Positions 3,181 through 38,861 of a DNA stretch of 64,000 nt are shown here, piece after piece. Position 1 is the first letter of the stretch. The number at the start of each line of letters is the position of its first letter. The stretch is from the NCBI GenBank assembly GCA_902500055.1, contig GCA_902500055.1_4131.1. One strand, written 5' to 3'. The stretch comes from Escherichia coli. Its GTDB lineage: Bacteria; Pseudomonadota; Gammaproteobacteria; Enterobacterales; Enterobacteriaceae. Below the pieces are notes generated by a model. It did not search any database, was not told where the DNA came from, and worked only from the letters and a program-made list of their open reading frames with translations. Made by a program: the position numbers and the translations under genes.

Positions 3181-3189
3181 ATTTCATTC

Positions 3190-4914: not shown

Positions 4915-4932
4915 AAAATTCTCCTTTAGGAC

Positions 4933-4961
4933 AATGTATCATACAAAAATACCAGAGTCAA
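4933..4961 (-). promoter_or_regulatory. sigma70-like promoter inside famA array
   Basis: Minus sense TTGACT-17 nt-TACATT, then AAAGGAG and the ATG of 4976..5557. Confidence 0.4.
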
Positions 4962-4975
4962 CCCCTGGTACAAAT

Positions 4976-5557
4976 TTAATCCATCATAAGTGGGATAATT
5001 GCCCATATCTTTTTCATAATCATATCTTCAGTAAAAACAAATGTTTTAGGAGCAGTATATGATATTGATACACCAAATGGAAGATGGATTGCATCATCAA
5101 TTATATTATGAATATCAAACCATGTTTTAACATAATCATACGGTGGAAGTTCATGAATTGTACTTAACTGAAAGTAATTCTCTTCACCAAAATCATTATA
5201 TTCAATTTCACAAATTTTAGTGAATTGATGATTCCATTTAGATATAATACTATTTTTATTATTGTACATAGTAGTTCTATGCATAAAACCATTTTTGCTA
5301 GTATGATTTGATATTACGTTTTCTTCAATGTCAGTATCTATTTTAAAATTCATATCAAAGTTGTAGTACGGACTTGACGATTCTTTGAATTTTAAATGTA
5401 AATTACGATTGTTATTAATTTCAATTTCAATACAAAACACATCTGAATCAAAACGATTAAACTTGTAATCGTTATCTTCCGGTAGATTCTGTATTTTTTT
5501 CATAATACTAAGCATAGGGTGTACTACACTTTTAATAAAATCATTTGTTATTTTCAT
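4976..5557 (-). CDS. famA paralog, hypothetical protein
   Basis: 193 aa; core EENYFQLSTIH. Confidence 0.6.
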   Translation of the reverse strand: MKITNDFIKSVVHPMLSIMKKIQNLPEDNDYKFNRFDSDVFCIEIEINNNRNLHLKFKESSSPYYNFDMNFKIDTDIEENVISNHTSKNGFMHRTTMYNNKNSIISKWNHQFTKICEIEYNDFGEENYFQLSTIHELPPYDYVKTWFDIHNIIDDAIHLPFGVSISYTAPKTFVFTEDMIMKKIWAIIPLMMD

Positions 5558-6050
5558 AGTATTCCTTTAGAACTTTATATGATTCAACAATACTATTTTG
5601 TGTATAATTTGAACTATATACAACAGCACTTGTTTTAGTTGACCATAGATATGACATAAAGGTTATAACACTACTACATGGACTTAATGTATTGTTTTGA
5701 AATTCAATTTCTTCAATGTTATCAGTACTGGTATATATGAATTGGAAAGTATCCATTGATTTATTGGACAGCGATACTATAGTAGAATCCGTACCGGGAC
5801 TATACATGAATGTCTCATTACTAATTGAACTATCATTAGTATATGATGGTTTGGGAATATAAATCAAACGCATGATATCGCGTTCAAGACCTGACTTATT
5901 ACTTTCCACCAAAGAAATCATATCTATATTTGATATATTTTCAACACTGACATGGAACTTTTTGTCGAGAATCACATCTCCATGAGAATTTTTATATGAA
6001 GACAAAATCTCATACATCTCAACCAATTCGCGTGCATTTAATAAACTCAT
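5541..6050 (-). CDS. famA-like paralog, hypothetical protein
   Basis: 169 aa; variant core EIEFQNNTLS. Confidence 0.5.
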   Translation of the reverse strand: MSLLNARELVEMYEILSSYKNSHGDVILDKKFHVSVENISNIDMISLVESNKSGLERDIMRLIYIPKPSYTNDSSISNETFMYSPGTDSTIVSLSNKSMDTFQFIYTSTDNIEEIEFQNNTLSPCSSVITFMSYLWSTKTSAVVYSSNYTQNSIVESYKVLKEYYENNK

Positions 6051-6475
6051 GTTTTGTCTCTTAATGAAAGAATATCCTTAGTATAAACTGAAACAGAAAT
6101 ATGATTATATTTCATCATTAATTTATACACATAAGAAGCTAGTACTAAATCGTAAATTAATTTAGTATTATACAGTACTTGGTATTGTAACGCAAGTGAA
6201 TCAATATCATCTTTACTTTCAATATCCAGAAATGTACCAAAAATTGTAGTACCGTGGAGATGAAAAGTGGAATTAATGCAATCAATGCATTCATTGTCCA
6301 ACAGAGTAGATGCTGATGTCCTCGGTGAATCCCAAATAGTCACTGCGTGTATGTCCTCAACGAACAAATCTATCCATGTTTTGTGTCGTTGTCTTTTTTG
6401 TGTTTTATAATTTTCTGGATTTGAAAGTGTAGTTTCAATTATATCCCATATGTACAAACAATCATCTCTTGTCAT
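6047..6475 (-). CDS. hypothetical protein
   Basis: 142 aa; ATGA-coupled in chain. Confidence 0.5.
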   Translation of the reverse strand: MTRDDCLYIWDIIETTLSNPENYKTQKRQRHKTWIDLFVEDIHAVTIWDSPRTSASTLLDNECIDCINSTFHLHGTTIFGTFLDIESKDDIDSLALQYQVLYNTKLIYDLVLASYVYKLMMKYNHISVSVYTKDILSLRDKT

Positions 6476-7053
6476 TATAGCACCTTATCCATTGCTGAAT
6501 TTAATGCTTTTAAACGATCTACATTCAAATTATTGAAGATGTACGTTCCTAACATGTGGAAATCGAACTGGTTCTTTTTGTATTCATGATAAATTAAACT
6601 ACAAAAAATAACAGTACTAAGAACCTCTTCAGGTATAACAGTGCTCATCTGGAACAGTTCTTCTTCAACTGTACTTGAATCTGGATTGATAGCTTTTAAC
6701 ACATACTCTTCATCACCGAATAGAACTTTAATATTATATAAAACACCAACAGTACTAATATGGAATGGGTGATGTGAAAAACTTCCATCATCCTTAATTT
6801 GTATATCGGTTCTAATCTCACACTCTTCATTACTTTTACTTTTATTTTTTACAATACAAATATTTCTGGCCCCAGAAATAGTAAGAATACCGTGGTCGTA
6901 ATATTCATTTGACCAACATTTAGATGAAATTGCTACATCACGGATGAGATATTGTTTTTCAATTTCTTTCGCACTACCAACAATTGATAGCATTTTTTTA
7001 CTGATATCATATAATAACTGATGGCGTTCTGTCATATAACTATAAGCGTTCAT
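6475..7053 (-). CDS. famA paralog, hypothetical protein
   Basis: 192 aa; core EEELFQMSTVI. Confidence 0.6.
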   Translation of the reverse strand: MNAYSYMTERHQLLYDISKKMLSIVGSAKEIEKQYLIRDVAISSKCWSNEYYDHGILTISGARNICIVKNKSKSNEECEIRTDIQIKDDGSFSHHPFHISTVGVLYNIKVLFGDEEYVLKAINPDSSTVEEELFQMSTVIPEEVLSTVIFCSLIYHEYKKNQFDFHMLGTYIFNNLNVDRLKALNSAMDKVL

Positions 7054-7624
7054 ATTTTTCCTTAACAGATTCTATATTTTGAAGTAGTGTATTCAGAACA
7101 TCAGTCTTGCAATTGATAAAATCATTGTACATAACTAGTTCACCACAATCAAGAACTTTTGCAGTATCGTAACAAAGCATTAAGTACTCGAATTCTTTGT
7201 AATTGTCCAACAATGATTTCTGGAAAATGAATGCATCTCGAATATCTTCACTTTGGTCTAATTCTGGTGGAACTTCCAAACCAATAAAACCATCATCTTC
7301 ACTGAAATTAGATTCTACAATTTTATTCATTTTTTCATGTAATGCATTCGCAAATACCATATTATAAGAAATAGAACCAATACGTTCACGATTTCTGGAT
7401 GTGCGAATGTACATAGTAATCGTATCCCATGAACTTTTAATTTTTTTAGAAAATTCATAAGTTTTATATACATCCAACTGAACTGAACCAAAACGATGTT
7501 TGGATTTGTTTTCAATTTTCAGTCGATAATTATCAAATTCAACAATTTCTGTAATGTCATGAATCTCTGAAAGTTCTGCAATGTCATGCATGAGTCTCAA
7601 AATTTTAGTTCTGATATGGTTCAT
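7040..7624 (-). CDS. famA-like paralog, hypothetical protein
   Basis: 194 aa; variant core DAFIFQKSLL. Confidence 0.55.
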   Translation of the reverse strand: MNHIRTKILRLMHDIAELSEIHDITEIVEFDNYRLKIENKSKHRFGSVQLDVYKTYEFSKKIKSSWDTITMYIRTSRNRERIGSISYNMVFANALHEKMNKIVESNFSEDDGFIGLEVPPELDQSEDIRDAFIFQKSLLDNYKEFEYLMLCYDTAKVLDCGELVMYNDFINCKTDVLNTLLQNIESVKEKYERL

Positions 7625-8199
7625 TGTGCATCCTCGAATTTAACAGGTACATGTTCATTAATGAAATTCTTAAGAGCCTGTACTAAATCCTCTAATTCTT
7701 TTGTACTGTATTTTAAAATTGTTTTAAAGTGAATCAAATCTTTTCTTTCCATGATCTTTGGAATTTTATATGCTAACTCTAAACAGCGTACAGTACTGGC
7801 ATCATACAAAAGGTTTGCGTTGAACATTAGAACATTGTATTCATCAGATGAAATTTTATAATTATATGTATCAATCACTTCATGTGTGTATAAATTCTTA
7901 TACACAATTTTATTCTCACTGAAGTTTGAGCAAACACACAGATGATCGTTGTAAAATGAAGAACGATAATCTTGTTTACGTTGTACATCTGCTATGATTT
8001 GTAATACTGTATATTTTTCTTCAGAATCCAACTCAATGTTAGCATAACTGCTCGCAGTTTCAGATACAAGGATATTGATGTTATATTTCTCATTAACTTT
8101 AATGTACTGGCGGGAACCAGTATCAGGAATGAACTTAAAACAATGCTTCAGAAGTAATGTGACTTCTTTAATTAATTCAGTACTCATAGATTCCTCCAA
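7621..8199 (-). CDS. hypothetical protein (degenerate famA-like)
   Basis: 192 aa. Confidence 0.5.
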   Translation of the reverse strand: MEESMSTELIKEVTLLLKHCFKFIPDTGSRQYIKVNEKYNINILVSETASSYANIELDSEEKYTVLQIIADVQRKQDYRSSFYNDHLCVCSNFSENKIVYKNLYTHEVIDTYNYKISSDEYNVLMFNANLLYDASTVRCLELAYKIPKIMERKDLIHFKTILKYSTKELEDLVQALKNFINEHVPVKFEDAQ

Positions 8200-8214
8200 C
8201 TCTATTTAAAATCA

Positions 8215-8243
8215 AGTATAACACACCTGAATGCTCTTGTAAA
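8215..8243 (-). promoter_or_regulatory. sigma70-like promoter
   Basis: Minus sense TTTACA-17 nt-TATACT, then GGAGGAA and the ATG of 7621..8199. Confidence 0.4.
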
Positions 8244-8253
8244 GCCATAAACA

Positions 8254-8274
8254 CAAAAAGACCCATACGGGTCT
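8254..8274 (-). terminator. intrinsic terminator after 8275..8841
   Basis: Hairpin AGACCCGTATGGGTCT followed by a T-run on the minus sense strand. Confidence 0.5.
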
Positions 8275-8841
8275 TTATTTGGGTAAAACACTGTCAATGT
8301 ACGCTAGAACCTCATCTCGAAGGTACGTTCCATCTATAGTTAGGTAATAGTTCATGGGAATATCACTCCCAACCTTCTCATAAATTTTCATACATGATAT
8401 CACATCTTCATCACAAATGGTACTCAATTGAAAAAGAACTTCATCGGTTAACGGTACGATATCATGTTTAGATAGGGGATTTGTATTTTCATTCAACACA
8501 ATATTAATCAAGTTAGGAGTATTCTTTGACGAAATATAACGATGCTTACTACGAATTACCATTCTCGATAGTGAAATACTGGAACTCCATCTTGGATCAA
8601 CATCTTCATATGATAACGATATTAACATCTCGTGAAAATCTTGAAATTTCATTGACGCATAATATGTTTTATCCTCACCGTACATACCAAATGATTTAAA
8701 TTCAATATCCCCTACTTTGTATGTATCGACATCATTATTTGAGAACTTTATTAAACTATTAATTAGTCTAATTAGAATATCATCTTTATCCATTCTTAAA
8801 TAACTCCAAGTGCATGTCGTATAAATCTCTGAAGTCTTCAT
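8275..8841 (-). CDS. famA paralog, hypothetical protein
   Basis: 188 aa (start may be internal Met at 8793); core DEVLFQLSTIC. Confidence 0.6.
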   Translation of the reverse strand: MKTSEIYTTCTWSYLRMDKDDILIRLINSLIKFSNNDVDTYKVGDIEFKSFGMYGEDKTYYASMKFQDFHEMLISLSYEDVDPRWSSSISLSRMVIRSKHRYISSKNTPNLINIVLNENTNPLSKHDIVPLTDEVLFQLSTICDEDVISCMKIYEKVGSDIPMNYYLTIDGTYLRDEVLAYIDSVLPK

Positions 8842-9349
8842 AGAAATCTTTTTCTTCCAGAATATCCTTTAAACTAGGAAACACTGCCATAATTTCTTCT
8901 ATATCCGATTCCATGAAAAACCCTGATGGATTATCGTAGTTTTGTAACAGATAACTGAAAGTAATAATGTAAAGAAGTTCATTAGGATTATGAATTAAAC
9001 TTAGCTGGAACATAGCTGATTCTAAATCTGATTCAGTACTAAGATCAACCCAACGTGAATTTCTATAATCAATTCGCACTTGACTTGTATTTGGATTCCA
9101 TGTGAAGCAATGTGTACCAATATGACCTATACAACCAACCCTTGTACTGTCTCCGGTATCAACACTGATATCAACAAATAGTTCAATACCGATATCGGTT
9201 GATGTTACACGACCTTTTTTCAGAAATAAATCATTATCCTTACGAAATTGTTTGGATGAAAGAGTGTCAATGATGCACATCAATGTTTTTGCAAATGCAA
9301 CACAATGACGAAATTCAAGCCTATGAAATTGGTAATCATTGATATTCAT
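8786..9349 (-). CDS. famA paralog, hypothetical protein
   Basis: 187 aa; core ESAMFQLSLIH. Confidence 0.6.
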   Translation of the reverse strand: MNINDYQFHRLEFRHCVAFAKTLMCIIDTLSSKQFRKDNDLFLKKGRVTSTDIGIELFVDISVDTGDSTRVGCIGHIGTHCFTWNPNTSQVRIDYRNSRWVDLSTESDLESAMFQLSLIHNPNELLYIITFSYLLQNYDNPSGFFMESDIEEIMAVFPSLKDILEEKDFYEDFRDLYDMHLELFKNG

Positions 9350-9888
9350 AATTCAACCCTCAATATTTTATCAGCAATTGATATAACCTTATCATTGAAT
9401 ACATTACCAATCTCAATCCTTATATACATAGCAGGTGGAATCTTTCCTTGTAGTGAATAATATGTTTGTATACCTAAGTACTCATTATCTGATAATGAAA
9501 ATTTGATTCTCTCCATATCAATGTCTGTTACTGGTAAATCTATCATTTCATAATGGTAGTCAACGTTTTCAGTGTATATTTTATCGAAGTAATTTGAATA
9601 ATCACTACTAATGTAGATGCTATCATCACGAATAATTACTTTATAATCAGAAGGTTCAAATTTATCTTTACAGGAAAAGAATGCATCATCTATTTTCTCT
9701 TCTCTTATACCGAATAACATTTTACCATCATATTTTACATCAAGAATACTACCTAGTATATTAATGGTACAATGCTCATCAATATTATGATGTAATGAAC
9801 GTTTTTTGTATTTTGGATTAATGAAAATTTTCATTAATTTTATACAAATGTCAGTAATGCATTTTACATTCTCATTTTCTATGTACAT
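9346..9888 (-). CDS. hypothetical protein
   Basis: 180 aa; no clear core. Confidence 0.5.
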   Translation of the reverse strand: MYIENENVKCITDICIKLMKIFINPKYKKRSLHHNIDEHCTINILGSILDVKYDGKMLFGIREEKIDDAFFSCKDKFEPSDYKVIIRDDSIYISSDYSNYFDKIYTENVDYHYEMIDLPVTDIDMERIKFSLSDNEYLGIQTYYSLQGKIPPAMYIRIEIGNVFNDKVISIADKILRVEL

Positions 9889-10375
9889 TAAAAGCCCTCT
9901 TTAATTCTTTTACATTTTTAATGAATACTTTCATTGCAGAAATCTCAAAAGATAATGTATTAAATTTGCAGTACTTTTTAAAGTACGACATAATATATAA
10001 CATTTTGAGTTCTTTTTCTGTATAAATTAAACTGTTTTGAAAGTAACTTTCTTCGGAAATGTCCGTAAGAAAAGAATAAAATGTATTTTGCTTGTGCACA
10101 ATTTTAATACTATCAGACCAAGATTTGTATGAAACGTAATCAGTACGTGCAAAATCATATAGTGAATTAGATGTATCTGTGTATGTTTCCGAGAACACAA
10201 TCTTATATATCTTATCTTGAATTCGAGAACATATGTACCTATGGTCATCTGTCTCACTGATTGCAATGTATCTATGGAGTAAATCTTTATGAGCATTGAT
10301 GAACTCAAACACTTCTAAACACTCCCTAGCGAACTTCATAGTTTCTCTGTACTTTCGGTTCATTAGTCTCTCCAA
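9872..10375 (-). CDS. famA paralog, hypothetical protein
   Basis: 167 aa; core EESYFQNSLIY. Confidence 0.6.
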   Translation of the reverse strand: MERLMNRKYRETMKFARECLEVFEFINAHKDLLHRYIAISETDDHRYICSRIQDKIYKIVFSETYTDTSNSLYDFARTDYVSYKSWSDSIKIVHKQNTFYSFLTDISEESYFQNSLIYTEKELKMLYIMSYFKKYCKFNTLSFEISAMKVFIKNVKELKRAFNVHRK

Positions 10376-10776
10376 ACTTTACCAGGGAAGTGTTTCTCGT
10401 AGTACTCATCATCACTTAACATATAATCAGGAGTTTCTACTTCTATGGTTTTGAAGATTGTTTCTGGAATGTGTGTGACTTTATTGGGTTGTACTTTATG
10501 TTCGCGTAAAACCTTCTGTATCGCTCCTAGACGTTGTAAATCGATACATGTAGGAAAGACTAAGCTGTACTGAAATAACTCATCAGGGGTCATTATAGAC
10601 ACATCTTTAGCTTGTTTGATTTGATAATTAGTACTAATGAATATATCAAATCCTTGTACAGCATTATAGCTTACATAGGTTGTTTTATTTTTGTCAATAG
10701 GAGCACTTAAACGATATCCATATATCCCGTGTTGGTCAACAACACAACGTTGCATAATTTTAATCATTTCTAACAT
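10363..10776 (-). CDS. famA paralog, hypothetical protein
   Basis: 137 aa; core PDELFQYSLVF. Confidence 0.6.
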   Translation of the reverse strand: MLEMIKIMQRCVVDQHGIYGYRLSAPIDKNKTTYVSYNAVQGFDIFISTNYQIKQAKDVSIMTPDELFQYSLVFPTCIDLQRLGAIQKVLREHKVQPNKVTHIPETIFKTIEVETPDYMLSDDEYYEKHFPGKVWRD

Positions 10777-11122
10777 AATTTACCTCATATGTATTGTAAC
10801 ACCACGGTTTAACAATATCGATTTGTATATCATTTGCTTCATGAAAATGTTTAAGTACCTTCTGGTATTCCATTATTTCGTACACATCTTCAGTACTTAT
10901 AGTGCTCTCCTGAAATAATTCCTCTTCTGATAAAGTACTATAATCAGGGATTTTTATTTCTGAATATATATCATTTATCTTTCCATTATATTGATAAATC
11001 TGGATATAAAATTGATTGTATTCTGGAATATAGGTTACATAATGGTTGTGGTTGATTACATATCTTGAAACAAAGTATTCAGTACCATCAGTCATGTACT
11101 GAATTGTTGTCGTATTTTGCAT
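10760..11122 (-). CDS. famA paralog, hypothetical protein
   Basis: 120 aa; core EEELFQESTIS. Confidence 0.6.
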   Translation of the reverse strand: MQNTTTIQYMTDGTEYFVSRYVINHNHYVTYIPEYNQFYIQIYQYNGKINDIYSEIKIPDYSTLSEEELFQESTISTEDVYEIMEYQKVLKHFHEANDIQIDIVKPWCYNTYEVNYVRND

Positions 11123-11582
11123 TCAAATAATCCACGCATTTATAGTATACTGCTAAATCTAAAAAGAATCGTTGTTTGTATTTGTAATGATGAAGTAGTG
11201 CACCATAAAATAACATAGCATTAAGTACTTTTACATCATGAATACAAGAACCCTGAAAGTACATTTCCTCTGACATGAATACTAAATCATTATACGGAAC
11301 AAATACTGCTTCTCTAAATGTATCAATATTAATCTTCAAATCAGACCCAGGGCAATATGAAATGTATTCTGCTTTGTAATGAAAGTCATTATCATCAAAG
11401 TACTCCGCGTAGATTTGATTACCTCTACCATTAGTAAATGCTAGTCTTCCTTTAGATGAACTGAACTCATCGTATTGAAACATACCACCAAAAGGTTTAG
11501 GACTTCTGAACTCCTTTGCAATGCGATAGATATTTTCTGCAAATTCTAAAACACCATCGTAATCATATTCTGTAGTAATCAT
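11088..11582 (-). CDS. famA paralog, hypothetical protein
   Basis: 164 aa; core EEMYFQGSCIH. Confidence 0.6.
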   Translation of the reverse strand: MITTEYDYDGVLEFAENIYRIAKEFRSPKPFGGMFQYDEFSSSKGRLAFTNGRGNQIYAEYFDDNDFHYKAEYISYCPGSDLKINIDTFREAVFVPYNDLVFMSEEMYFQGSCIHDVKVLNAMLFYGALLHHYKYKQRFFLDLAVYYKCVDYLNAKYDNNSVHD

Positions 11583-12055
11583 AAACCATTTTTCTCCAGG
11601 TACTCAATAATACAATCGACATTGTTCAGGTCCAAGTAGAAATGATCACTATCGGAATTTAGTTCATTTTTAAGGGCTGTTAAAATCACTGAACTGAAAA
11701 CAATCCTCTCTGGATACACAGTATTGTACTGGAAGAACTCTTCTTCAGTGTTAATTACAATCGTATCAAATGCTTCATTTATAAGAAGATGATTGTAGTA
11801 TTTGAAATTATCTGAACTTGGGAAATGGTATGAAATAAAATCACCACTTGGTACTTCATCAAGCACTCTAATACTACAAGTTGATTCATCTGAACTATAG
11901 AGTAACCCATCCATAAAGGAAAGGTATCCATTTCGTTTTTTGACTGTATGTTTGCCCACTGAAAAATCTTCAGTAACATTCGAAAGGAATTTATAAACCC
12001 TGATAATGTCTTTTGCTATTTTTTGTGCATTGCTAAATGATAGGTCTTTGGACAT
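11579..12055 (-). CDS. famA paralog, hypothetical protein
   Basis: 158 aa; core EEEFFQYNTVY. Confidence 0.6.
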   Translation of the reverse strand: MSKDLSFSNAQKIAKDIIRVYKFLSNVTEDFSVGKHTVKKRNGYLSFMDGLLYSSDESTCSIRVLDEVPSGDFISYHFPSSDNFKYYNHLLINEAFDTIVINTEEEFFQYNTVYPERIVFSSVILTALKNELNSDSDHFYLDLNNVDCIIEYLEKNGL

Positions 12056-12065
12056 TGTGTTATAA

Positions 12066-12118
12066 CCCTTTACAATTAATATAAAGGGATTATATCACAA
12101 AAAATCGGTGGGTGTCAA
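12066..12118 (-). promoter_or_regulatory. sigma70-like promoter plus 5' leader hairpin
   Basis: Minus sense TTGACA-18 nt-TATAAT followed by palindrome CCCTTTA..TAAAGGG before the ATG of 11579..12055. Confidence 0.4.
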
Positions 12119-12699
12119 GAGTGGTTGCGAAGTTCTACCATTTCTTCCCAAACTAATTGGTAATCTTCTAAGTCCAGATAGAAGTCTTCATTCCAGTGCT
12201 CATGAAAGTACTTATACATGAATAGAACTCCTAAATCGTATGCAGGAAACAATAATGATAGTTGAAAGTAGTATTCCTGATTTAAAACTATATCAATAAA
12301 CTCTAATGTACGTATGCCACCTTTCGATGAACGTATCTCAATGTGTGAGGTATCCTTCATACTGTAACACATGAAACCACCTCTAAATTCTGGATCATAT
12401 TCACATTCGAACTGCTCACTGTTGTTATAGAAATCTCTCCCACTTTCTTGATCTTTCGGTCTACGTACTGATACATGAATATTTTTATCACGGTACATTG
12501 AACGATTTAGTATTTTCAAACATTTGAACTTATCTTCTTTAATGAACTTGATAATATCAATTATATCTTGTGCTGTACTGATAGCTGATTCGAATGTATC
12601 CAACTTAAGATGATTATATTGGGTTCCAGAGTTCATTTTTTTATCTAACATATAAACCTCATAATTCATACATTTTTGATTTGAACTGCATATGACCAC
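12115..12699 (-). CDS. famA paralog, hypothetical protein
   Basis: 194 aa; core QEYYFQLSLLF. Confidence 0.6.
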   Translation of the reverse strand: MVICSSNQKCMNYEVYMLDKKMNSGTQYNHLKLDTFESAISTAQDIIDIIKFIKEDKFKCLKILNRSMYRDKNIHVSVRRPKDQESGRDFYNNSEQFECEYDPEFRGGFMCYSMKDTSHIEIRSSKGGIRTLEFIDIVLNQEYYFQLSLLFPAYDLGVLFMYKYFHEHWNEDFYLDLEDYQLVWEEMVELRNHS

Positions 12700-13000
12700 C
12701 TATTTCACATGGATAACAATTCATAATTTTGTTCAATAGAATCTGGTATTTTTTAATAACTTCTATATCAATTTTTATATTACTATTAAAAACTAATGAT
12801 TCTTGAAATAATTCCCCCTCGTCAAGTGAAGTAAAATCATTTATCTTCAAGGGTATATTGTTGCATCGCAAGGAGAATGTATTTTCATCACGAATTAAAG
12901 TATAGAAATCATTATGTTTTTTATTATAATCAAATTTAACAAGTAGTAGTTTAATATGAGTAGCGTACATTACTTTAACTAATTCAGATTCACGTCGCAT
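12659..13000 (-). CDS. famA paralog, hypothetical protein
   Basis: 113 aa; core EGELFQESLVF. Confidence 0.6.
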   Translation of the reverse strand: MRRESELVKVMYATHIKLLLVKFDYNKKHNDFYTLIRDENTFSLRCNNIPLKINDFTSLDEGELFQESLVFNSNIKIDIEVIKKYQILLNKIMNCYPCEIGGHMQFKSKMYEL

Positions 13001-13422
13001 ACAATACCTCTCTTATGATGCAAACATTCTTGCATAATGTGTTGTATTTTTCGTAACAGAAACACATCCAGTTCATTAAAAACAGTACTGTACTGGAACA
13101 TCTCTTCTTCCCCGTACTCAGTTAAATCGTCAATTTCATCTCTAGAAACAGCTACAATATTAAAACCACGTGTACTACAATAACCCTTAGTAAGATAATA
13201 TATGTACTTGTACTCTCCGTTGATATCTAAGAGATCTTGTGTGATACAGAAGCTTTTGGGTGACAGTTTATCATCAGGAACCATATGCCTTGCTTGTACA
13301 TAGCAACGGATACCATCACCTATACTATATGTAATAACTTCAAATTCAATCTTCATAGGTGAATATAATCCTTTTATATTGCTCAGGTGCAGTACTGAAA
13401 CGTTTGATTGGATAATTATCAA
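12979..13422 (-). CDS. famA paralog, hypothetical protein
   Basis: 147 aa; core EEEMFQYSTVF. Confidence 0.6.
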   Translation of the reverse strand: MIIIQSNVSVLHLSNIKGLYSPMKIEFEVITYSIGDGIRCYVQARHMVPDDKLSPKSFCITQDLLDINGEYKYIYYLTKGYCSTRGFNIVAVSRDEIDDLTEYGEEEMFQYSTVFNELDVFLLRKIQHIMQECLHHKRGIVCDVNLN

Positions 13423-13708
13423 AGATTCTTTTCATTTCTTTCTGGATTAAACATAAGAAATCAAAGTTACAATCGTACTTATTATCCCATACTAAACTTT
13501 CTTGGAATAACTCATCCTCTTGCATTAGTGTAGTGTCAATTACATCTTCACGGACATAGCTATATACTTCATAGCTCTTGAAGCCATCTTCTGATAATTC
13601 TAATTCATATGCAGCCATATCAAACATATCATCATGGTTTGTCTTCAAAGATATTAAACAAGTAACTAATTTTTTAGTTGTATAGTATGTAATACTTAAT
13701 GTGTTCAT
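13346..13708 (-). CDS. famA paralog, hypothetical protein
   Basis: 120 aa; core EDELFQESLVW. Confidence 0.6.
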   Translation of the reverse strand: MNTLSITYYTTKKLVTCLISLKTNHDDMFDMAAYELELSEDGFKSYEVYSYVREDVIDTTLMQEDELFQESLVWDNKYDCNFDFLCLIQKEMKRIFDNYPIKRFSTAPEQYKRIIFTYED

Positions 13709-13713
13709 TTGTT

Positions 13714-14316
13714 TTATACCTCAGTGTATAGCTTACAATAACTTTCATCGAAGTCACAAACACTTCTCAAGTACTGACACAGGTCATTGAAAATATTTAC
13801 ATTTGATATATATACATTATCAAATTCTGTTCGTTGAAAGAATGTATGCATAGAATTTGTAATATATCGCATTGCATCTTCACGTCCCATAGTTATATCA
13901 TTTGTGAACATTGCATCTTCATCAGTACTGATGTGTTCTATTTTAAATGATTTCATAAATGGAATACTCTTTCCTAGGGCATAACCATCACCATATGATG
14001 CTTCTACTGCACCTTTGGAATAAAGGAATTGATATAAGTCCGAATCACGATTATAAAAAGTACGACATACGGAGGAACATAATTTATTATCTATATGAAA
14101 TAAAAATCTTTTAGCATTTTTGTCTAATACTATTCGCAATGCATCACTCTCTAGAAATATATCACCATCAAGCATAAATGAGAACTGTACTAATGCTTTT
14201 TCTAAATCCGCTCGTTTGTGATAAATCATTTCCTGCATATATATAATATCATTTGCTAATTTCTTAAAAAACAAATGCACATCTGCACTACAACATTTAT
14301 TTGCATTTATTGACAT
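13714..14316 (-). CDS. hypothetical protein (degenerate famA-like)
   Basis: 200 aa. Confidence 0.5.
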   Translation of the reverse strand: MSINANKCCSADVHLFFKKLANDIIYMQEMIYHKRADLEKALVQFSFMLDGDIFLESDALRIVLDKNAKRFLFHIDNKLCSSVCRTFYNRDSDLYQFLYSKGAVEASYGDGYALGKSIPFMKSFKIEHISTDEDAMFTNDITMGREDAMRYITNSMHTFFQRTEFDNVYISNVNIFNDLCQYLRSVCDFDESYCKLYTEV

Positions 14317-14867
14317 AATAGTTCCTTATACATATGATGTACTTTACAAATCTCATTATAGTATTTCATATCAATGTCATTTGTAATAAAAACGGAAACA
14401 GACAATACTGCTAACTTATCAATTAAGTAATTATTATCGGCGTACTGTTTTAACTTATTGAACATATAGATGCATTTTATACTTAATTCATCATGCAACA
14501 CACTGTTCTGAAAAATATTCTCTTCAGTATTAGGAGATAAGTAATCTTCAATTATATACGATAAACTACTATCGCAATCTTTATAGATTGAAATTGATGG
14601 ATGTAATGTGTCATACATTACACTAAACAGATCACCGTCATATGTGGATATTAAACTATTATTGGAAACAGTAGGATGATAATATTTCAGTACTGAAAAC
14701 TTTGAACAATCAGTGCAGTAAAAATGATCCATCCCTCGACGACTTTCGTATGAGAATAGTTTACTTGTATATTCAATCCCTTTGGTGCGACGGATTGTTT
14801 CATGCATTTCTGCACATTGCATTAAAATTACCATACGTTCAAACGCAAGATCTAAATCATCGTACAT
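14307..14867 (-). CDS. famA paralog, hypothetical protein
   Basis: 186 aa; core EENIFQNSVLH. Confidence 0.6.
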   Translation of the reverse strand: MYDDLDLAFERMVILMQCAEMHETIRRTKGIEYTSKLFSYESRRGMDHFYCTDCSKFSVLKYYHPTVSNNSLISTYDGDLFSVMYDTLHPSISIYKDCDSSLSYIIEDYLSPNTEENIFQNSVLHDELSIKCIYMFNKLKQYADNNYLIDKLAVLSVSVFITNDIDMKYYNEICKVHHMYKELLCQ

Positions 14868-15048
14868 AACGGATATCCTTCTTCAACGAATTAATATATT
14901 CCAAAATAACTTGTTCCTGATATTGGGTTCCCAAGTACATCAGTACTTTCAACTCTTTGAATTCAGTACTATATGAGTCTGTTTGCATCATTCTAGTAGA
15001 ATATATATTGAATAGTTTAGCAATATCATCTTGGTCTATTATTTTCAT
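14857..15048 (-). CDS. famB paralog (LGTNYQE-core small protein)
   Basis: 63 aa; core YLGTQYQEQVILEYI; isolated copy inside famA array. Confidence 0.55.
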   Translation of the reverse strand: MKIIDQDDIAKLFNIYSTRMMQTDSYSTEFKELKVLMYLGTQYQEQVILEYINSLKKDIRYVR

Positions 15049-15244
15049 TAACCCTCTTCTGTATTAGTTCCTGTAAGTGCTGAATATAACCCTTCATTGC
15101 AACATCCTGTTTGTTAGAGCCAACGAAGAACAAGAGCTTAAAGTCATGGTAATCCATTTTTGGTTTAGTAGTGAACCATATGTCCCACACTGCACTCACA
15201 GTTCTCATGTATTCAATTCGATTAAATGTTTTTGAATACTTCAT
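15026..15244 (-). CDS. famB-like small protein
   Basis: 72 aa; degenerate core FVGSNKQDVAMKGYI. Confidence 0.45.
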   Translation of the reverse strand: MKYSKTFNRIEYMRTVSAVWDIWFTTKPKMDYHDFKLLFFVGSNKQDVAMKGYIQHLQELIQKRVNENNRPR

Positions 15245-15758
15245 CGATGTTCATTGCCAATAAGTTAATATACAAATTACTGTTAAATGCTATCTGCAAT
15301 TCCATATAGAACTGAATGATTGCATAGTCAGGGTCAGTACACGATAGTTGAAAACACTGTTCGTCGAATGCATTGTAATTGTACTTAGGGATGTGAATTT
15401 CACGCTTCAAATCAGGTTGCCCCCACTTCATCGCGTACACACCAATGTTATTGTTCTTTTTCCTTTTCTTAAATGTTAATTGTTGAATATTTCCTGCGTT
15501 ATCCAGGAAAATAGAATTATTCGACACAGGTGCACCAATAGAAAACAATGATGTATCAATTACGTGTTTCTCACGTACATCACACTTCTGAAATGCACCT
15601 GTACCCTGTAATACACGATGAAAATTGTACTTCTCATTAACAACAGTACTAGGATCAATTAAACCAGTACTGCATTTTTTGAGTACTGGTACAATGGTGC
15701 GAATCTTTTTTGATAAATCTTGTAATGCATCAAAGTCATTGATGTTAACTTTCATCAC
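15222..15758 (-). CDS. famA paralog, hypothetical protein
   Basis: 178 aa; core DEQCFQLSCTD. Confidence 0.6.
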   Translation of the reverse strand: MMKVNINDFDALQDLSKKIRTIVPVLKKCSTGLIDPSTVVNEKYNFHRVLQGTGAFQKCDVREKHVIDTSLFSIGAPVSNNSIFLDNAGNIQQLTFKKRKKNNNIGVYAMKWGQPDLKREIHIPKYNYNAFDEQCFQLSCTDPDYAIIQFYMELQIAFNSNLYINLLAMNIDEVFKNI

Positions 15759-16204
15759 TCGAATGTAGCCTCTTCAGTAGTAACAAAATTGGTTAGTGTA
15801 TCCAGTTCAGCAGTGTCAAGATAAAATACATCTAGTACAGATTTCTGATATATTACACTGAATGTGCATAGATTGTCAAGTGTCCCTTGTTCATAAACAG
15901 TACTACCCTGGAAGTACCCTTCTTCAGTACTCAGGGATAAAATATCTGAAATTTTAAAAGATTCTTCAGTTGCATGTCTTTCTATATTAACTATATTGCC
16001 GTTTCGGTTCAATGAAATATAATCGTATGCTAACTCAATTAGACTATAATTATCCGCATTAGTGTCAAATAAAGCGACAATTTTTCGTCTCAATCTCTCA
16101 TCGTGATCATGGTTTTCATCAGCTAAGTATTCAGGATTTTCTTTGAAGAATTTAACGACGCGTAGAATATCATTTGCTTTCTTGATTGCACTTTCGTAAC
16201 TCAT
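15755..16204 (-). CDS. famA paralog, hypothetical protein
   Basis: 149 aa; core EEGYFQGSTVY. Confidence 0.6.
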   Translation of the reverse strand: MSYESAIKKANDILRVVKFFKENPEYLADENHDHDERLRRKIVALFDTNADNYSLIELAYDYISLNRNGNIVNIERHATEESFKISDILSLSTEEGYFQGSTVYEQGTLDNLCTFSVIYQKSVLDVFYLDTAELDTLTNFVTTEEATFE

Positions 16205-16509
16205 AATAATTCAACCACTCCATCTCTAAAGTACATATAACTACCACCATTGGATACTGTGAATTCTATTGTCCCCAATAATATATTATATTTTTTTATT
16301 TCACATGTAGTACTTGTAGTGTAAGGCTCACCATCTCCTAAGTACATTGACATATGACATAGAACTTTTCTACCAGCATATTTCTCTTCAAACGATTGTT
16401 CAAAACTATGCATAATTTGATTTAAAGCTGAAATGTAATTAATAAAGTCAGGTATTTCTGTCAATGAATTATAAACCGTACAAAGTGAATCAAATTCATT
16501 TTTAGTCAT
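16201..16509 (-). CDS. hypothetical protein
   Basis: 102 aa; no famA core. Confidence 0.5.
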   Translation of the reverse strand: MTKNEFDSLCTVYNSLTEIPDFINYISALNQIMHSFEQSFEEKYAGRKVLCHMSMYLGDGEPYTTSTTCEIKKYNILLGTIEFTVSNGGSYMYFRDGVVELL

Positions 16510-16823
16510 TATATTTCTATCTCAATGTAATCCTGTGTGATTAAGTAATTCCAATGATACTTCACCTGCTTTTGTAATTCAATTAACGTAAAGAAGTTGA
16601 TCGATTTATCCCACACGAGCGATTCCTGGAAAATAAATGATTCATGTTCATCGTAATAATCACACTCTAAAAAATCAGGTATATATTCACTATCGTGAAT
16701 GTATTCAACAAATGAACTAGCTTGGCATTTCTTTACTACTAGTAATAATGAATTATCATGATCAAACAGATACAATAAACTAATTTCACCAGGGACGTAC
16801 TGAACACTGAATAAGTTTTTCAT
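16509..16823 (-). CDS. famA paralog, hypothetical protein
   Basis: 104 aa; core ESFIFQESLVW. Confidence 0.6.
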   Translation of the reverse strand: MKNLFSVQYVPGEISLLYLFDHDNSLLLVVKKCQASSFVEYIHDSEYIPDFLECDYYDEHESFIFQESLVWDKSINFFTLIELQKQVKYHWNYLITQDYIEIEI

Positions 16824-17272
16824 TCTATACCTTCTGGATCTTTACGAAGTTCTTCGAAATCCAAATAAAATCGAGGACAGTTAACACTCTTTAAGTACCA
16901 CATAATAACTAATGCTTCAAGTACTTCATCATCGTAAACAGTACTGTTTTGGAAGTAATACTCTTCACTATCCCACGGACCTTCCAGTACTTCATAATTC
17001 AAAATTAATGGTTTTTTGCGATTAATAAAACGAATGCTACCATTTTCAACATAACTAATAAATTCTGCATCTCTATTGTATTCAGAAAACGATATAGGAC
17101 TATTGGAATTCAACCCAAGAATAACCCTTACACCAACGGAGTTATTATACATTTCATCCTTGTAGTAGTTGCCGTTCTCGGCTTTGTACACTTCTTTGAA
17201 CTTTCCTGCCTTTATATCGTCAAAGTATCCATGTAGTTCTTTTGCTTTTTCAAGAGCACTTTGTAATGACAT
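16820..17272 (-). CDS. famA subfamily A1 paralog
   Basis: 150 aa; N-term MSLQSALEKAK; core SEEYYFQNSTVY; tail VIMWYLK. Confidence 0.65.
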   Translation of the reverse strand: MSLQSALEKAKELHGYFDDIKAGKFKEVYKAENGNYYKDEMYNNSVGVRVILGLNSNSPISFSEYNRDAEFISYVENGSIRFINRKKPLILNYEVLEGPWDSEEYYFQNSTVYDDEVLEALVIMWYLKSVNCPRFYLDFEELRKDPEGIE

Positions 17273-17738
17273 TACCTTCTCCTACAGTATTCTCTACATA
17301 TTCATAATCAAAATAGAAACTACTGGAGTCAATACTTTTGAAATACCACATAATTACAATAACATCCAGTTCTTCTTCATTGTACAACGTACTATTCTGG
17401 AAGTAATACTCTTCACTATCCCACGGACCTTCTAGTACTGAATAAGGAATGATAGTGTCATCAGCATCACTATCTGTGTTGTAGATGGTAATATCTTCAT
17501 TACGGCAATAACTAATGTACTGATTGTACATATGATATTCACAGTTATCACTGTCACCAGTATCAGTGTGCAGTACTAATGTTTCTGCACATACCTCTGA
17601 TTCGTCATAATCATCTCTATCCTTAACGAAGAATTCCGTATCTGATGTTTTGTATACACCTGGTACTGAACCTTCCTGTACCATAATCATGTACTCATGA
17701 ATTTTCTTTGCTTCTTTCAATGCACTTTGTAATGACAT
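17250..17738 (-). CDS. famA subfamily A1 paralog
   Basis: 162 aa; MSLQSALKEAK; core SEEYYFQNSTLY. Confidence 0.65.
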   Translation of the reverse strand: MSLQSALKEAKKIHEYMIMVQEGSVPGVYKTSDTEFFVKDRDDYDESEVCAETLVLHTDTGDSDNCEYHMYNQYISYCRNEDITIYNTDSDADDTIIPYSVLEGPWDSEEYYFQNSTLYNEEELDVIVIMWYFKSIDSSSFYFDYEYVENTVGEGNVITKCS

Positions 17739-17740
17739 TA

Positions 17741-18181
17741 TTATTCCCCTGAAATTAAATACTCACATGATCCCCAGTCAAGAAAGAATGGTTCAAAATT
17801 CAATTCCTTAAAGTACCACAACACAACCAAGGAATCAAGCATTTCTTGGTTAAAAATGAGACTCTGTTGGAAGTAATACTCTTCAGTACCCCACGGGCCA
17901 TCAAGTACTCCGAAGTCAACAGGTGTATTTGATGTGTCAAAAGTAATCTTAGTACCAGGAATATATACCATAAAACTAGTATATTGACTACATGAAGAGT
18001 ACTGTATATTATTGTCTTTATCATGACCCATAAGTAAAATATCATTAGAGTATCTCTTTACTCCAGTGAGGTAATATTCATTCCCATATGCATGTACTTT
18101 ATCAGCATAGAACCCACTTTTTATTTTATCATGGTACTGATGTATTTTGTTGGCTAGTTCTAGTGCTTTTTCTAAACTCAT
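17741..18181 (-). CDS. famA subfamily A1 paralog
   Basis: 146 aa; MSLEKALELANK; core TEEYYFQQSLIF. Confidence 0.65.
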   Translation of the reverse strand: MSLEKALELANKIHQYHDKIKSGFYADKVHAYGNEYYLTGVKRYSNDILLMGHDKDNNIQYSSCSQYTSFMVYIPGTKITFDTSNTPVDFGVLDGPWGTEEYYFQQSLIFNQEMLDSLVVLWYFKELNFEPFFLDWGSCEYLISGE

Positions 18182-18648
18182 ATATCCTCTTTAAGTACTC
18201 TTAGTAGATCCAAGTCTATGTAGAAGCTACTATAATCCGTGTTATGAAAGTACCACGAAATAACAAGTTTGTCAAGTATATCTTCATTATATATAGTACT
18301 CTGCTGGAAATAGTAATCTTCACTACCCCAGTTATTATCCAGTACTGAATACGGAAGATATACCTCTGGTGCACCTGTTTGAATTAATGAATCTTGGATT
18401 AAAATATCAGCATCACGGCAGAAGTACATGTAATTATCTTCCAAATTAACATCACATCCTGTGAGTACTATGTCAGAATCATCTAAGTTTTCTTCATACA
18501 TATGGATATATTCACTACTGTCATCGTATATCATTCGACAATATGATTTACCTTCCTTGAATAGATATCCATTGAGACAATTTGATACAATTTCTTTGCT
18601 GCATAAATCAATTAACTTCGCAATCTCTAATGCTCTTTCTAAACTCAT
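18178..18648 (-). CDS. famA subfamily A1 paralog
   Basis: 156 aa; MSLERALEIAK; core SEDYYFQQSTIY. Confidence 0.65.
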   Translation of the reverse strand: MSLERALEIAKLIDLCSKEIVSNCLNGYLFKEGKSYCRMIYDDSSEYIHMYEENLDDSDIVLTGCDVNLEDNYMYFCRDADILIQDSLIQTGAPEVYLPYSVLDNNWGSEDYYFQQSTIYNEDILDKLVISWYFHNTDYSSFYIDLDLLRVLKEDI

Positions 18649-18649
18649 T

Positions 18650-19144
18650 TCAACCCCTGTTAATACCGTTATCTACAGTTTTCGTTACGTATCTGTAATC
18701 GAAATAGAAGTTCCCAGAACCAATACTTTTAAAGTACCACATAATAACTAATACTTCAAGTACTTCATCATCGTAAACAGTACTTTGTTGGAAGTAATAC
18801 TCTTCACTATCCCACTGACCTTCTAGTACTTCACTCGGAATTATAATGTCATCGGAATCGCAGTCAGTACTGTATATGGTAATATCTGCATCATTAATAT
18901 AGACCATGTACTCATTATGCATATCAATGAAACATTCATAATCATTAGGGTCGGTATCTAGTATGCACGTTTCTGTATCCAGTACGCACGTTTCTGTATC
19001 TGAGCAGTCATTATAAAGGAGGTTATCTGGCACATAATATTGAGTACTTGTGTCTTTGAAAACACCGTAAACTGAACCTTCTTTTGCCATATTCATGTAC
19101 TCATGAATCTTCTTTGCTTTTTCCAATGAACTCTGTAATGTCAT
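18650..19144 (-). CDS. famA subfamily A1 paralog
   Basis: 164 aa; MTLQSSLEKAK; core SEEYYFQQSTVY; internal tandem duplication TETCVLDTETCILDT. Confidence 0.65.
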   Translation of the reverse strand: MTLQSSLEKAKKIHEYMNMAKEGSVYGVFKDTSTQYYVPDNLLYNDCSDTETCVLDTETCILDTDPNDYECFIDMHNEYMVYINDADITIYSTDCDSDDIIIPSEVLEGQWDSEEYYFQQSTVYDDEVLEVLVIMWYFKSIGSGNFYFDYRYVTKTVDNGINRG

Positions 19145-19153
19145 TTTATAATC

Positions 19154-19513
19154 TCATATATTGAAATAATAATTATTCGTTCTTGATGGGGATGGATTAA
19201 ATACGTTTTCTTTTTCAAATCTCTTCATTTCATTTTGCAAAGAAACCATTTCTTCAAATGTACAGGAGTACTTATTCTTATCAAACACTAATGCTTCCTG
19301 AAATAGTTCACCATCGTCCAGTACTGTATAATCTATAAGACTCTCAGATTCATAGTCATAGCCATCATGTAATACATGAATAAATTTAAAACAAGAATCT
19401 TTGTAGTGCATATATAAACTCAACTCATGTTCCGAGTCTCCCTTAATAAGATTACAGCACAAGTCCCATCCTTTAGGTAACTTATAATAGTACATAGAAT
19501 AATCATATGTCAT
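19154..19513 (-). CDS. famA subfamily A2 paralog
   Basis: 119 aa; core DGELFQEALVFDK. Confidence 0.6.
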   Translation of the reverse strand: MTYDYSMYYYKLPKGWDLCCNLIKGDSEHELSLYMHYKDSCFKFIHVLHDGYDYESESLIDYTVLDDGELFQEALVFDKNKYSCTFEEMVSLQNEMKRFEKENVFNPSPSRTNNYYFNI

Positions 19514-19869
19514 TTTGGAATTCCTATATTGAATTTGTATTCTTGATTAATACATTCATTAGGTTTATTCAACGATGCATACACCTTCATTTCATTTTGT
19601 ATAGTAATTACTTCTTCAAGTGTACAGATGTACTTCTTGTCAAATACTAATGCAGCTTGAAATAGTTCACCAGCATCCATCAATGTATAGTCCGGCATAT
19701 CAGTGTATGGAAAATCTAATGAACTGTAATCAATAAATGAGAATTTACCATCAGTAAAATGAATATACTCATTCGCACTGTGCATTAAATCACCTTTGTT
19801 TAAATTACAAAAGTACTGATAACTGTGCTTAAAAGAATGTACTGATATTAAAAAATCAAATTCCATCAC
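19510..19869 (-). CDS. famA subfamily A2 paralog
   Basis: 119 aa; core AGELFQAALVFDKKYICTLEE. Confidence 0.6.
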   Translation of the reverse strand: MMEFDFLISVHSFKHSYQYFCNLNKGDLMHSANEYIHFTDGKFSFIDYSSLDFPYTDMPDYTLMDAGELFQAALVFDKKYICTLEEVITIQNEMKVYASLNKPNECINQEYKFNIGIPK

Positions 19870-20243
19870 ACTTCCCCTAGATTGAAATGATTACAAAAAT
19901 CAACTTCACCAGTACTGCACCAGATATCTATACATTCCCTGTGAATACATTTAATTCTACGCTGTAATTCAATCATCTCTTCTAATGTACAGATGTACTT
20001 CTTATCAAATACTAATGCCTCCTGAAACAGTGCAGCATCATCAAGTACTGTATAGTCCAACATCTCGGTTGCTTTACCCCTAAACCCAGTACTAAAATCC
20101 ATCAAATAAAAGTCAGCATTCCAGTACTTTAAAATCTTGTCCCTAGCGTAGTTTAAATCACCCTTGTATAAGTTAGAGTGCGTAACTAACTCACCAGTGT
20201 ACATCCATGTCCTTGCACAAAATTCATTATATTTTATTTCCAT
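19866..20243 (-). CDS. famA subfamily A2 paralog
   Basis: Track ORF 19866..20384 trimmed to Met48 (MEIKYNEF...); core AALFQEALVFDKKYICTLEE. Confidence 0.5.
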   Translation of the reverse strand: MEIKYNEFCARTWMYTGELVTHSNLYKGDLNYARDKILKYWNADFYLMDFSTGFRGKATEMLDYTVLDDAALFQEALVFDKKYICTLEEMIELQRRIKCIHRECIDIWCSTGEVDFCNHFNLGEV

Positions 20244-20439
20244 CTTAATCTCTACTATAATTAATAAGGTAAACTCCAATATAAGGAGCACGTTCGGCGG
20301 CGGGGTATTTTTTGTTTCAGGAAACATGAACTGTACTCTGAAAAACACAATATAAAACTTTATATTAAACATATACCTTAGCATGTTTTTCAGCGGAAAT
20401 TTTTTTGACCCCCCTGCGGCCTGTCAAAATGAAACGTCT

Positions 20440-37736: not shown

Positions 37737-37823
37737 GGTGTATCTCCTGGACTTGAGGGGAAACCATTTCCCCCTCTCGATATAAAACATTATACGTTAA
37801 TCTAACTACAATGCAAGTACTTT

Positions 37824-38284: not shown

Positions 38285-38372
38285 AATTTTGTTTCCTTTT
38301 ATTGGTGGGGGAGAACTATTCTCCCCTTGATGTAAACTATTATACAGTACTGATATACTTTGTCAAATACTT

Positions 38373-38777: not shown

Positions 38778-38798
38778 GATTTTATTCCTTTTAGTATC

Positions 38799-38857: not shown

Positions 38858-38861
38858 ATAC

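Follow-up and report, generated by a model that had tools for sequence, protein, structure and literature searches.

The MGF families of African swine fever virus (ASFV) and the gene "accordions" of poxviruses are lineage-specific multigene families of large DNA viruses. Among bacteriophages, a zinc-ribbon expansion of ~35 copies has been described in Bacillus phage G (Iyer et al. 2021, PMC7824862), and almost 10% of the gene products of phage RaK2 are paralogues without database matches (PMC3622015). Hua et al. devoted one sentence to a tandem array in phage 121Q, with tandem duplication as a means of expanding the jumbo genome, and the paper on phage phAPEC6 repeats this idea (PMC7247149). 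Here we analyse such an array in a 64,000-nucleotide stretch of DNA deposited under Escherichia coli (GenBank assembly GCA_902500055.1, contig GCA_902500055.1_4131.1; hereafter the window), taking as our starting point eight adjacent genes, five of type A1 (A1a to A1e) and three of type A2 (A2a to A2c). In our judgement these are probably two sub-expansions within one co-directional array of ~40 genes and 28 kb, made up of old, selectively kept and still recombining copies, for which we infer a function in host interaction.

Like the families of phage G, ASFV and the poxviruses, this array consists of tandem, co-directional small paralogs in a non-structural region, with copies that vary between strains and that are subject to duplication, loss and recombination. 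There is, however, no sequence or fold relationship between those families and this one, and the array differs from a transient accordion in that the duplications are old and each copy is conserved. The array of Hua et al. belongs to the same genome type, and its gene count is matched by the ~40 genes found here. Their remark, however, lists no genes and offers neither a motif nor a structure nor an analysis of evolution, and it speaks of "very similar" genes, whereas most pairs in our array are only 10-25% identical; it could equally mean a second tandem family that we find at 29,080-34,958. None of the papers on 121Q, phAPEC6 and RaK2 characterises this family or treats its motif, structure or evolution. 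A lineage-specific multigene family of a large virus that evolves by birth and death with gene conversion is a known phenomenon; the family itself is uncharacterized.

The A1 and A2 genes within the array

The ~4-kb region around the eight genes has 97.1% nucleotide identity to phage 121Q and matches 36 deposited genomes, and the source of the window is evidently an Asteriusvirus, a 121Q/PBECO4-type jumbo coliphage of ~350 kb. A sequence-only reading of the window had described five adjacent A1 genes (16820-19144) and three adjacent A2 genes (19154-20243) as recently duplicated members of one family, "famA", and had drawn from them a picture of ongoing unequal crossing-over. The open reading frames (ORFs) lie exactly where that reading placed them (Table 1), arranged head-to-tail on the minus strand with neighbours that either overlap by 4-23 nt or stand 1-9 nt apart. 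The sequence features used to group the A1 genes are also present with small variations: the N-terminus is MSL(Q/E)xALExAK except in A1e, where it reads MTLQSSLEKAK, the core is (S/T)E(E/D)YYFQ(N/Q)S, and three copies have the tail WYFK, the other two being A1a (WYLK) and A1d (WYFH). A string said to be shared by the A2 genes is found in similar form in all three, although the exact version given for it, GELFQEALVFDKKYICTLEE, is only approximate, the copies reading GELFQEALVFDKNKYSCTFEE in A2a, GELFQAALVFDKKYICTLEE in A2b and AALFQEALVFDKKYICTLEE in A2c. Nucleotide similarity between neighbouring copies, whose absence would have spoken against duplication, is seen as a 145-nt stretch occurring five times with 64-82% identity and a 99-nt stretch occurring three times with 61-79% identity, and is restricted mostly to the conserved core. 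Given that the A1 members score 92-109 bits against the family profile (E 1e-28 to 1e-33) and match PHROG 9317 over their full length (E 1e-55 to 4e-66, profile positions 1 to ~158 of 160), homology among the A1 copies is far above chance. The three A2 proteins likewise give full-length matches to PHROG 15629 (E 2e-58 to 2e-60, positions ~1-120 of 121).

These eight genes are a small part of a much larger family. A motif scan picks out ~35 genes with an E-E-x-[YF]-F-Q-x-S core on the minus strand from 915 to 29,090, and an iterative search with hidden Markov models (HMMs), seeded by the five A1 genes, converged at 38 members, or ~40 when two identified by motif only are included. The shared module, of ~24 residues, can be written x-[ST]-E-E-x-[YF]-F-Q-x-S-[TL]-[VI]-[YFWH]-[DN]; all eight A1 and A2 genes carry it, with the invariant F-Q followed by x-[SA]-[TL]-[VI], and Phe and Gln are the sole invariant residues across 40 aligned paralogs of what we call the FQ family. 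Members fall into long forms of the A1 type (~150-190 aa) and short forms of the A2 type (~105-125 aa). A scan of 121Q places the equivalent array at 160,771-189,186 and shows that it stops there, and the window thus contains the complete array. Other array members match PHROG 12674, 13866, 28549 and 19795, and these, together with 9317 and 15629, are all annotated as "unknown function"; the PHROG database divides the array among many families, and captures neither the unifying FQ module nor the array organisation.

Some minus-strand genes interspersed in the array, two of them of note, are missed by the family HMM. One, at 15222-15758, nevertheless encodes "EQCFQLSCTD" and is possibly a divergent member; in place of the other, at 16201-16509, phages SP27, EC.P1 and Turkey3 have a 147-aa family member, a further cassette swap.

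Age of the copies and continuing recombination

The copies are far more diverged than the claim of recent duplication would lead one to expect. Identity between A1 paralogs is 32-57% in protein and 50-69% in codon-aligned nucleotides, A2 paralogs are 38-42% identical in protein, and outside the core the codon-aligned nucleotide identity is 0.40-0.46 for all but the A1b-A1e pair (0.65), which is the closest A1 pair and a non-adjacent one. Synonymous divergence between paralogs, estimated by the Nei-Gojobori method (dS), runs from 0.85 to saturated, and between orthologs of one copy across Asteriusviruses it is 0.01-1.0. Moreover, the same five A1 genes stand in the same order in seven of the eight genomes first compared, most relatives hold a positional ortholog of each copy, and A1b orthologs are 99.4% identical in 16 genomes. 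Taken together, the low identity and high dS between paralogs and the conserved five-gene order indicate that the duplications are old and predate most of the Asteriusvirus radiation. The ratio of nonsynonymous to synonymous divergence (dN/dS) between orthologs is mostly 0.02-0.5, which reflects purifying selection and argues that each copy is maintained rather than decaying as redundancy; all eight are, by this measure, real and selectively maintained genes.

Recent tandem duplication by unequal crossing-over, leaving copies that have barely diverged, would explain the head-to-tail tandem layout and the local nucleotide identity of up to 82% over 145 nt. A tandem micro-duplication exists in A1e and a repeat-flanked indel at A2b indicates that unequal recombination does happen here (both described below). 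The paralog identities, the high dS and the identical gene order given above are nevertheless difficult to reconcile with a recent origin, and the high local identity is accounted for by the conserved module and by gene conversion, so that recent duplication is largely refuted and in our view very improbable. The near-identical copies, low dS and copy numbers varying among very close strains that would mark a gene accordion are likewise absent; copy content differs only among more divergent strains.

The other part of the sequence-only reading, that unequal crossing-over and diversification are ongoing, is borne out by four independent observations: a conversion tract shared by A1a and A1e, a 590-bp repeat-flanked indel, replacement of A1e in some relatives and a polymorphic 21-bp duplication. 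Over a 102-nt core, 5 sites separate A1a from A1e in the window and 16 in 121Q. The window A1e is unlike all six other A1e orthologs at six sites within 10 nt, and at all six it matches A1a, which lies 1.8 kb off. In the C-terminal part of the two genes, 30 of 34 identical degenerate positions use the same codon when 16.1 would be expected from family codon usage (P=7e-7), and there is no such excess in the N-terminal part (14 of 26, with 12.5 expected). The derived A1e state is found in only one of the 36 deposited genomes, that of CRJP21. A lineage-specific gene-conversion tract joining A1a and A1e is supported by these data, although one site inside the tract, the middle base of a Val/Ala codon, is unconverted, and the donor could have been an unsampled allele instead of the resident A1a.

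The indel lies at the 5' end of A2b. Phages 121Q, G17 and Turkey3 have 590 bp between A2c and A2b that are missing in the window; this segment comprises a chimeric fragment and a 122-aa family gene, and in all three phages the first ~84 nt of A2b stand as a direct repeat on either side of it. At the junction in the window, the upstream flank is that of copy 1 whereas the internal variants are those of copy 2, the pattern that a single crossover within the first ~32 identical bases would leave, either as a deletion here or as an insertion there. Gene 366 of 121Q (121Q locus 5232-5456) is a chimeric 74-aa ORF, the first 27 residues of which are the A2b N-terminus and the remainder unrelated sequence with "EFQNS"; it may be left over from the recombination event by which the 590-bp segment arose or was lost.

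Copy number across related phages is constant in part, since the five A1 genes are conserved in seven of eight genomes, and variable in part, since contents differ in Turkey3, ph0011, A4, Turkey5, 121Q, G17 and UE-S1. An A2-like gene fills the A1e slot in Turkey3 and ph0011, which thus have four A1 and four A2 genes, A4 has four A1 genes and one A2 gene, and divergent A1- and A2-type genes are interleaved in Turkey5. Divergence to relatives also varies gene by gene, A1a having 99% identity to PBECO4 and 92% to 121Q while A1c has 99% identity to 121Q and 84% to PBECO4, and this variation indicates allelic exchange between co-infecting phages. In UE-S1, A2c and A2b are annotated as one 242-aa ORF (locus 5489-6217), read through where stop and start overlap in GTGA. 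This could be a genuine fusion, or else a one-base change or sequencing error, and we give it no weight as evidence.

The tandem repeat that had been reported in the gene at 18650..19144, with a near-identical DNA repeat around 18950-19000, was recovered by Tandem Repeats Finder (TRF) at 18954-19000. It translates as TETCVLD-TETCILD-T and coincides with a low-confidence acidic loop in the structural model of A1b. The 21-bp unit is present in two copies in 121Q, PBECO4, G17, EC.P1 and SP27, and because it is single-copy in UE-S1 and in A4, which has the most divergent A1e, the duplication is a derived, polymorphic product of replication slippage. The block as a whole evolves by birth and death, with copies gained, lost, fused and swapped between strains, and homologous recombination among paralogous stretches still yields conversion tracts, deletions and insertions.

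Table 1. Positions of the array, of the eight genes and of the repeat, recombination and promoter features in the window
Feature	Position	Strand	Basis and remarks
Whole FQ-family array, ~40 members	915..29090	minus	Motif scan and iterative HMM search; the eight genes are a subset
A1a gene, 150 aa	16820..17272	minus	ORF; family HMM 103 bits; PHROG 9317, E 8e-60; ortholog dN/dS 0.12-0.38; long form
A1b gene, 162 aa	17250..17738	minus	ORF, family HMM, PHROG; stop 23 nt within A1a start; dN/dS 0.02-0.27
A1c gene, 146 aa	17741..18181	minus	ORF, family HMM, PHROG; dN/dS 0.18-0.49
A1d gene, 156 aa	18178..18648	minus	ORF, family HMM, PHROG; dN/dS 0.21-0.49
A1e gene, 164 aa	18650..19144	minus	ORF, family HMM, PHROG; bears micro-duplication and conversion tract
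A2a gene, 119 aa	19154..19513	minus	ORF; PHROG 15629, E 2e-60; family HMM 56 bits; short form
A2b gene, 119 aa, GTG start	19510..19869	minus	ORF, family HMM, PHROG
A2c gene, 125 aa	19866..20243	minus	ORF; start MEIKYNEF set by alignment with A2 orthologs
A1a partner stretch of homogenised core	16893..16994	minus	Matches A1e at five sites unlike A1a of 121Q and UE-S1
A1e core stretch, 95% identical to A1a 16893-16994	18732..18833	minus	Six derived A1a-matching substitutions at ~18746-18755
Tandem duplication in A1e, 21 bp x2.2	18954..19000	minus	TRF score 80, 92% matches
Recombination junction at A2b 5' end	19784..19868	minus	BLAST pieces overlap 85 nt
Candidate sigma-70-type promoter, TTGATA-16-TATTAT	21718..21746	minus	Predicted only; intergenic gap upstream of unit leading into A2/A1

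Relation of long and short forms, and candidate functions

Treating A1 and A2 as one family, as the name famA implied, is only weakly justified: the 24-column module is shared, but direct comparison of the subfamilies is not significant. AlphaFold2 models were obtained with high predicted local distance difference test (pLDDT) and predicted template modelling (pTM) scores for A1b (pLDDT 89, pTM 0.84) and for A2b (pLDDT 87, pTM 0.82). Both contain a beta-sheet, a short F-Q helix, a long helix and a last strand, to which A1 adds N- and C-terminal helices, so that long and short forms are different, confidently predicted alpha/beta scaffolds around the module. Across the family, variation is concentrated in the sheet and loops, and the FQ module and its flanking helix are conserved. 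When the models were compared by Foldseek with a library of viral structures (BFVD), all neighbours were uncharacterized proteins, from 121Q, PBECO4, slurp01, RaK2, GAP32, Yersinia fHe-Yen9 and Serratia BF.

It is conceivable that A1 and A2 are unrelated and acquired the same short FQ module by convergence or recombination, in which case famA would not be one homologous family. The subfamily HMMs give this idea some weight, since A1 scores 0 on A2 and A2 scores 0 on A1, as do the helices of A1 that A2 lacks and the profile and structural comparisons that we weigh below. When 25 long and 12 short members are compared more broadly, however, hhalign reaches 90% probability (E 1.5e-6), intermediate paralogs chain both classes together in the iterative search, the order of elements around the module (sheet, FQ helix, long helix, strand) is the same, and both classes are present in one array in every clade member examined. 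We therefore consider unrelated origins unlikely and regard famA as a motif-sharing superfamily whose long and short forms probably go back to a common ancestor.

Database searches offer little guidance to function. No Pfam family was found among the members, the one sub-threshold match being to RINGv at 12.6 bits against a cut-off of 21.6 bits; NCBIfam and PADLOC gave isolated single-member chance matches only, and sequence-profile and fold searches of the PDB gave no usable match. Most members have a pI of 4.0-5.6, with a few neutral or basic, and no obvious membrane segments. A1b, A1d and A1e are exceptional in having a pI of 4.05 and a net charge of -21 to -26, other members being mostly moderately acidic. 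These three share the strong acidity of Ocr/ArdA-type DNA-mimic anti-restriction proteins, but structural similarity to a known DNA mimic was not seen. On the coding strand, in addition to the candidate promoter upstream of the A2/A1 unit, similar sigma-70-like sites occur in the gaps at 28374, 12118 (a perfect TTGACA-18-TATAAT) and 8243, and their intergenic placement is suggestive. An HMM search (E<=10) of the early region (first 50 kb) of PA5oct, a phage for which RNA sequencing (RNA-seq) data exist, found no FQ-family gene, and expression timing is consequently not transferable from the PA5oct RNA-seq.

As a tentative proposal, we suggest that the FQ proteins may be early-made, non-structural host-interaction binders built on a common scaffold or module. 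They would be non-virion, cytoplasmic and mostly acidic, would be expressed early in infection from host-type promoters, and would act as diversified binders in host takeover or anti-defence, the conserved module forming a common core or touching a common partner while the variable sheet and loops recognise different targets. Several results weigh against this proposal or against the single family on which it builds. The empty Pfam, NCBIfam, PADLOC, PDB and fold searches yield no homology-based function, and consensus sigma-70 sites show no overall enrichment over shuffled sequence (93 found, 114 expected). In favour of non-virion proteins, none of the 62 proteins in the virion proteome of the close relative phAPEC6, in which A1e corresponds to gp442c, is an array member, and none lies between gp348 and gp548, but this absence would be compatible with low-copy or processed proteins as well. 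As for the unity of the family, hhalign of the A1 and A2 subfamilies gives a non-significant probability of 1.2%, the A1-A2 link is confined to the 24 FQ-centred columns of the broader comparison, the Foldseek neighbours of A1 and A2 are disjoint sets, and what is shared could be a motif set within two unrelated scaffolds.

T4 internal proteins (IPs) provide a precedent for a different role, in that they carry an N-terminal capsid-targeting peptide which is cleaved by the prohead protease, are packaged, and are injected to counter host defence. The T4-type IP loci and other hyperplastic regions of T4-like phages are likewise variable small-gene arrays with a short conserved element, thought to serve host-specific counter-defence. 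If FQ proteins were similarly packaged and ejected, with the module as a targeting or processing signal, one could understand why a hypervariable tandem array shares little besides a short motif; moreover, a prohead protease is encoded by this phage group, and a passage of the phAPEC6 paper describes an inner body in the capsids (PMC7247149). The FQ module, however, is internal rather than a terminal peptide and is predicted to lie in a folded helix and turn (pLDDT >90), there is no N-terminal signal family-wide (MSLQSALE being common to A1 only), and none of the phAPEC6 virion proteins maps to the array. A packaged role is consequently improbable, and non-structural binders remain our preferred reading.

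By eye, some members also fit the TEV/3C-type protease site, which we take to be E-x-x-Y-x-Q followed by S or G; EEGYFQG in the gene at 15755-16204 is an example. We considered whether the E-E-x-Y-F-Q-x-S module might be such a site, and the proteins substrates or decoys of a Gln-specific protease; downstream of the array, 121Q does encode ClpP-like and ClpYQ-like proteases, though these are not Gln-specific. The position after Gln varies widely (N, Q, E, Y, L, M, K, G, A), often with a bulky residue, the motif is placed by confident prediction in a folded helix and not in an exposed linker, and no 3C-like protease was seen in the annotated neighbourhood. A TEV-like cleavage site was rejected on the grounds of the variable residue and the folded motif, and we attach almost no credence to it. 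The stretch Q-x-S-L-[VI]-[YF] may also bear some likeness to the pentapeptides that bind bacterial sliding clamps (QL[SD]LF), a possible parallel on which none of our conclusions draws.

Within the preferred reading of non-structural binders, the FQ module might serve all members for docking to a single partner, which could be a hub protein of the host or a phage machine such as the ClpP/ClpYQ-like proteases, with the ~40 paralogs acting as a library of adaptors, decoys or inhibitors that differ in the surface they expose. We rate this more specific idea as rather unlikely.

Genomic setting, distribution and significance

The array is part of a single co-directional region of ~86 kb. Read in the direction of transcription, it comes after blocks of tiny genes (60-90 aa) and before a stretch with functions in nucleotide metabolism and repair, where a DNA methyltransferase, ribonucleotide reductase, RNA ligase, polynucleotide kinase, DNA ligase and Clp-like proteases are encoded; in 121Q the last of these include the ClpP-like and ClpYQ-like enzymes. 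Upstream of A2c, the largest non-coding gap near the eight genes (197 nt, 20244-20440) has GC-rich patches, GGCCGCAGGGGGG and CCCCGCCGCCG, in AT-rich surroundings and a TTGACA-17-AAAAAT site. The longest ORF for A2c runs spuriously through this gap to 20384; the homologous start is at 20243. An RNA fold in the gap is not significant (z = -0.62), and no Rfam matches were found in 13-23 kb. Further upstream, at 24364-24430 on the minus strand, a terminator-like hairpin (24430-24409, with a T-run after it) is followed directly by a promoter-like site close to consensus, TTGACA-17-TATCAT with an upstream TG (24392-24364), an arrangement that suggests a transcription-unit boundary inside the array; the true start of the ORF at 23814-24497 probably lies downstream of the one given by the longest-ORF call.

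The window holds several other repeated families. The second tandem family, on the minus strand at 29080-34958, consists of ~25 small proteins (52-92 aa, 26-53% pairwise identity), 23 copies forming one run directly upstream of the FQ array in transcription order and two being embedded within it (14857-15048 and 15026-15244). On the plus strand at 60309-63644 there are three ORFs of 239-381 aa with 81-100% mutual identity, which correspond to the RCC1-like "DNA condensation protein" paralogs of 121Q (genes 242-248), virion-associated in phAPEC6; these duplicates are much more recent than A1 or A2. Plus-strand ORFs at ~37500-41700 pair with others at ~46000-51000 (64-88% identical, e.g. 37536-37805 with 48274-48510), where the 121Q genes are on the opposite strand, which suggests DNA-level repeats, perhaps intergenic or regulatory units, in a block of tiny, well-spaced genes with a GC content of 0.38-0.40. 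Finally, three small families of 59-81-aa proteins, with 3-4 members each and 31-45% identity, are located on the minus strand at 55926-59452, near a change in the sign of GC skew at ~56 kb.

Outside the window, an exhaustive profile search of 1.84 billion representative proteins returned only 154 clusters at E<=1e-3, and FQx[STACNG] is kept in 105 of the 111 clusters that are not close orthologs of window genes. Named sources of these clusters are Asteriusviruses and JNE01-type phages, the remainder being metagenome assemblies; a word-indexed homolog search gave Asteriusvirus proteins only, and structural neighbours extend the range to RaK2, GAP32, Serratia BF and Yersinia fHe-Yen9-03/04. A metagenomic contig of 101 kb, with hardly any similarity in nucleotides to the window, carries 32 or more members within 20.5 kb, likewise overlapping and co-directional, among which there is one clear A1-type gene only. 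The set of five A1 genes is therefore an Asteriusvirus-specific sub-expansion, and the large array is ancient in the clade. Judged by these searches, the family is limited to RaK2-like jumbo phages, and the array is a hallmark of RaK2-like jumbo myoviruses.

One orphan family thus occupies ~8% of a 350-kb phage genome (28 kb, ~40 genes), in an array that is conserved in RaK2-like jumbo phages of Escherichia, Klebsiella, Cronobacter, Serratia and Yersinia. The lesson of the eight genes themselves is modest, in that these are old, still-recombining paralogs and not fresh duplicates, and the array as a whole offers a clear natural case of viral birth-and-death evolution accompanied by gene conversion. 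Such orphan families are prime candidates for host-range and counter-defence determinants in therapy phages. Should the docking-element idea prove true, the array would be an undescribed, clade-wide host-takeover or anti-defence arsenal on new folds, the specificities of which are continually reshuffled by conversion and cassette exchange.

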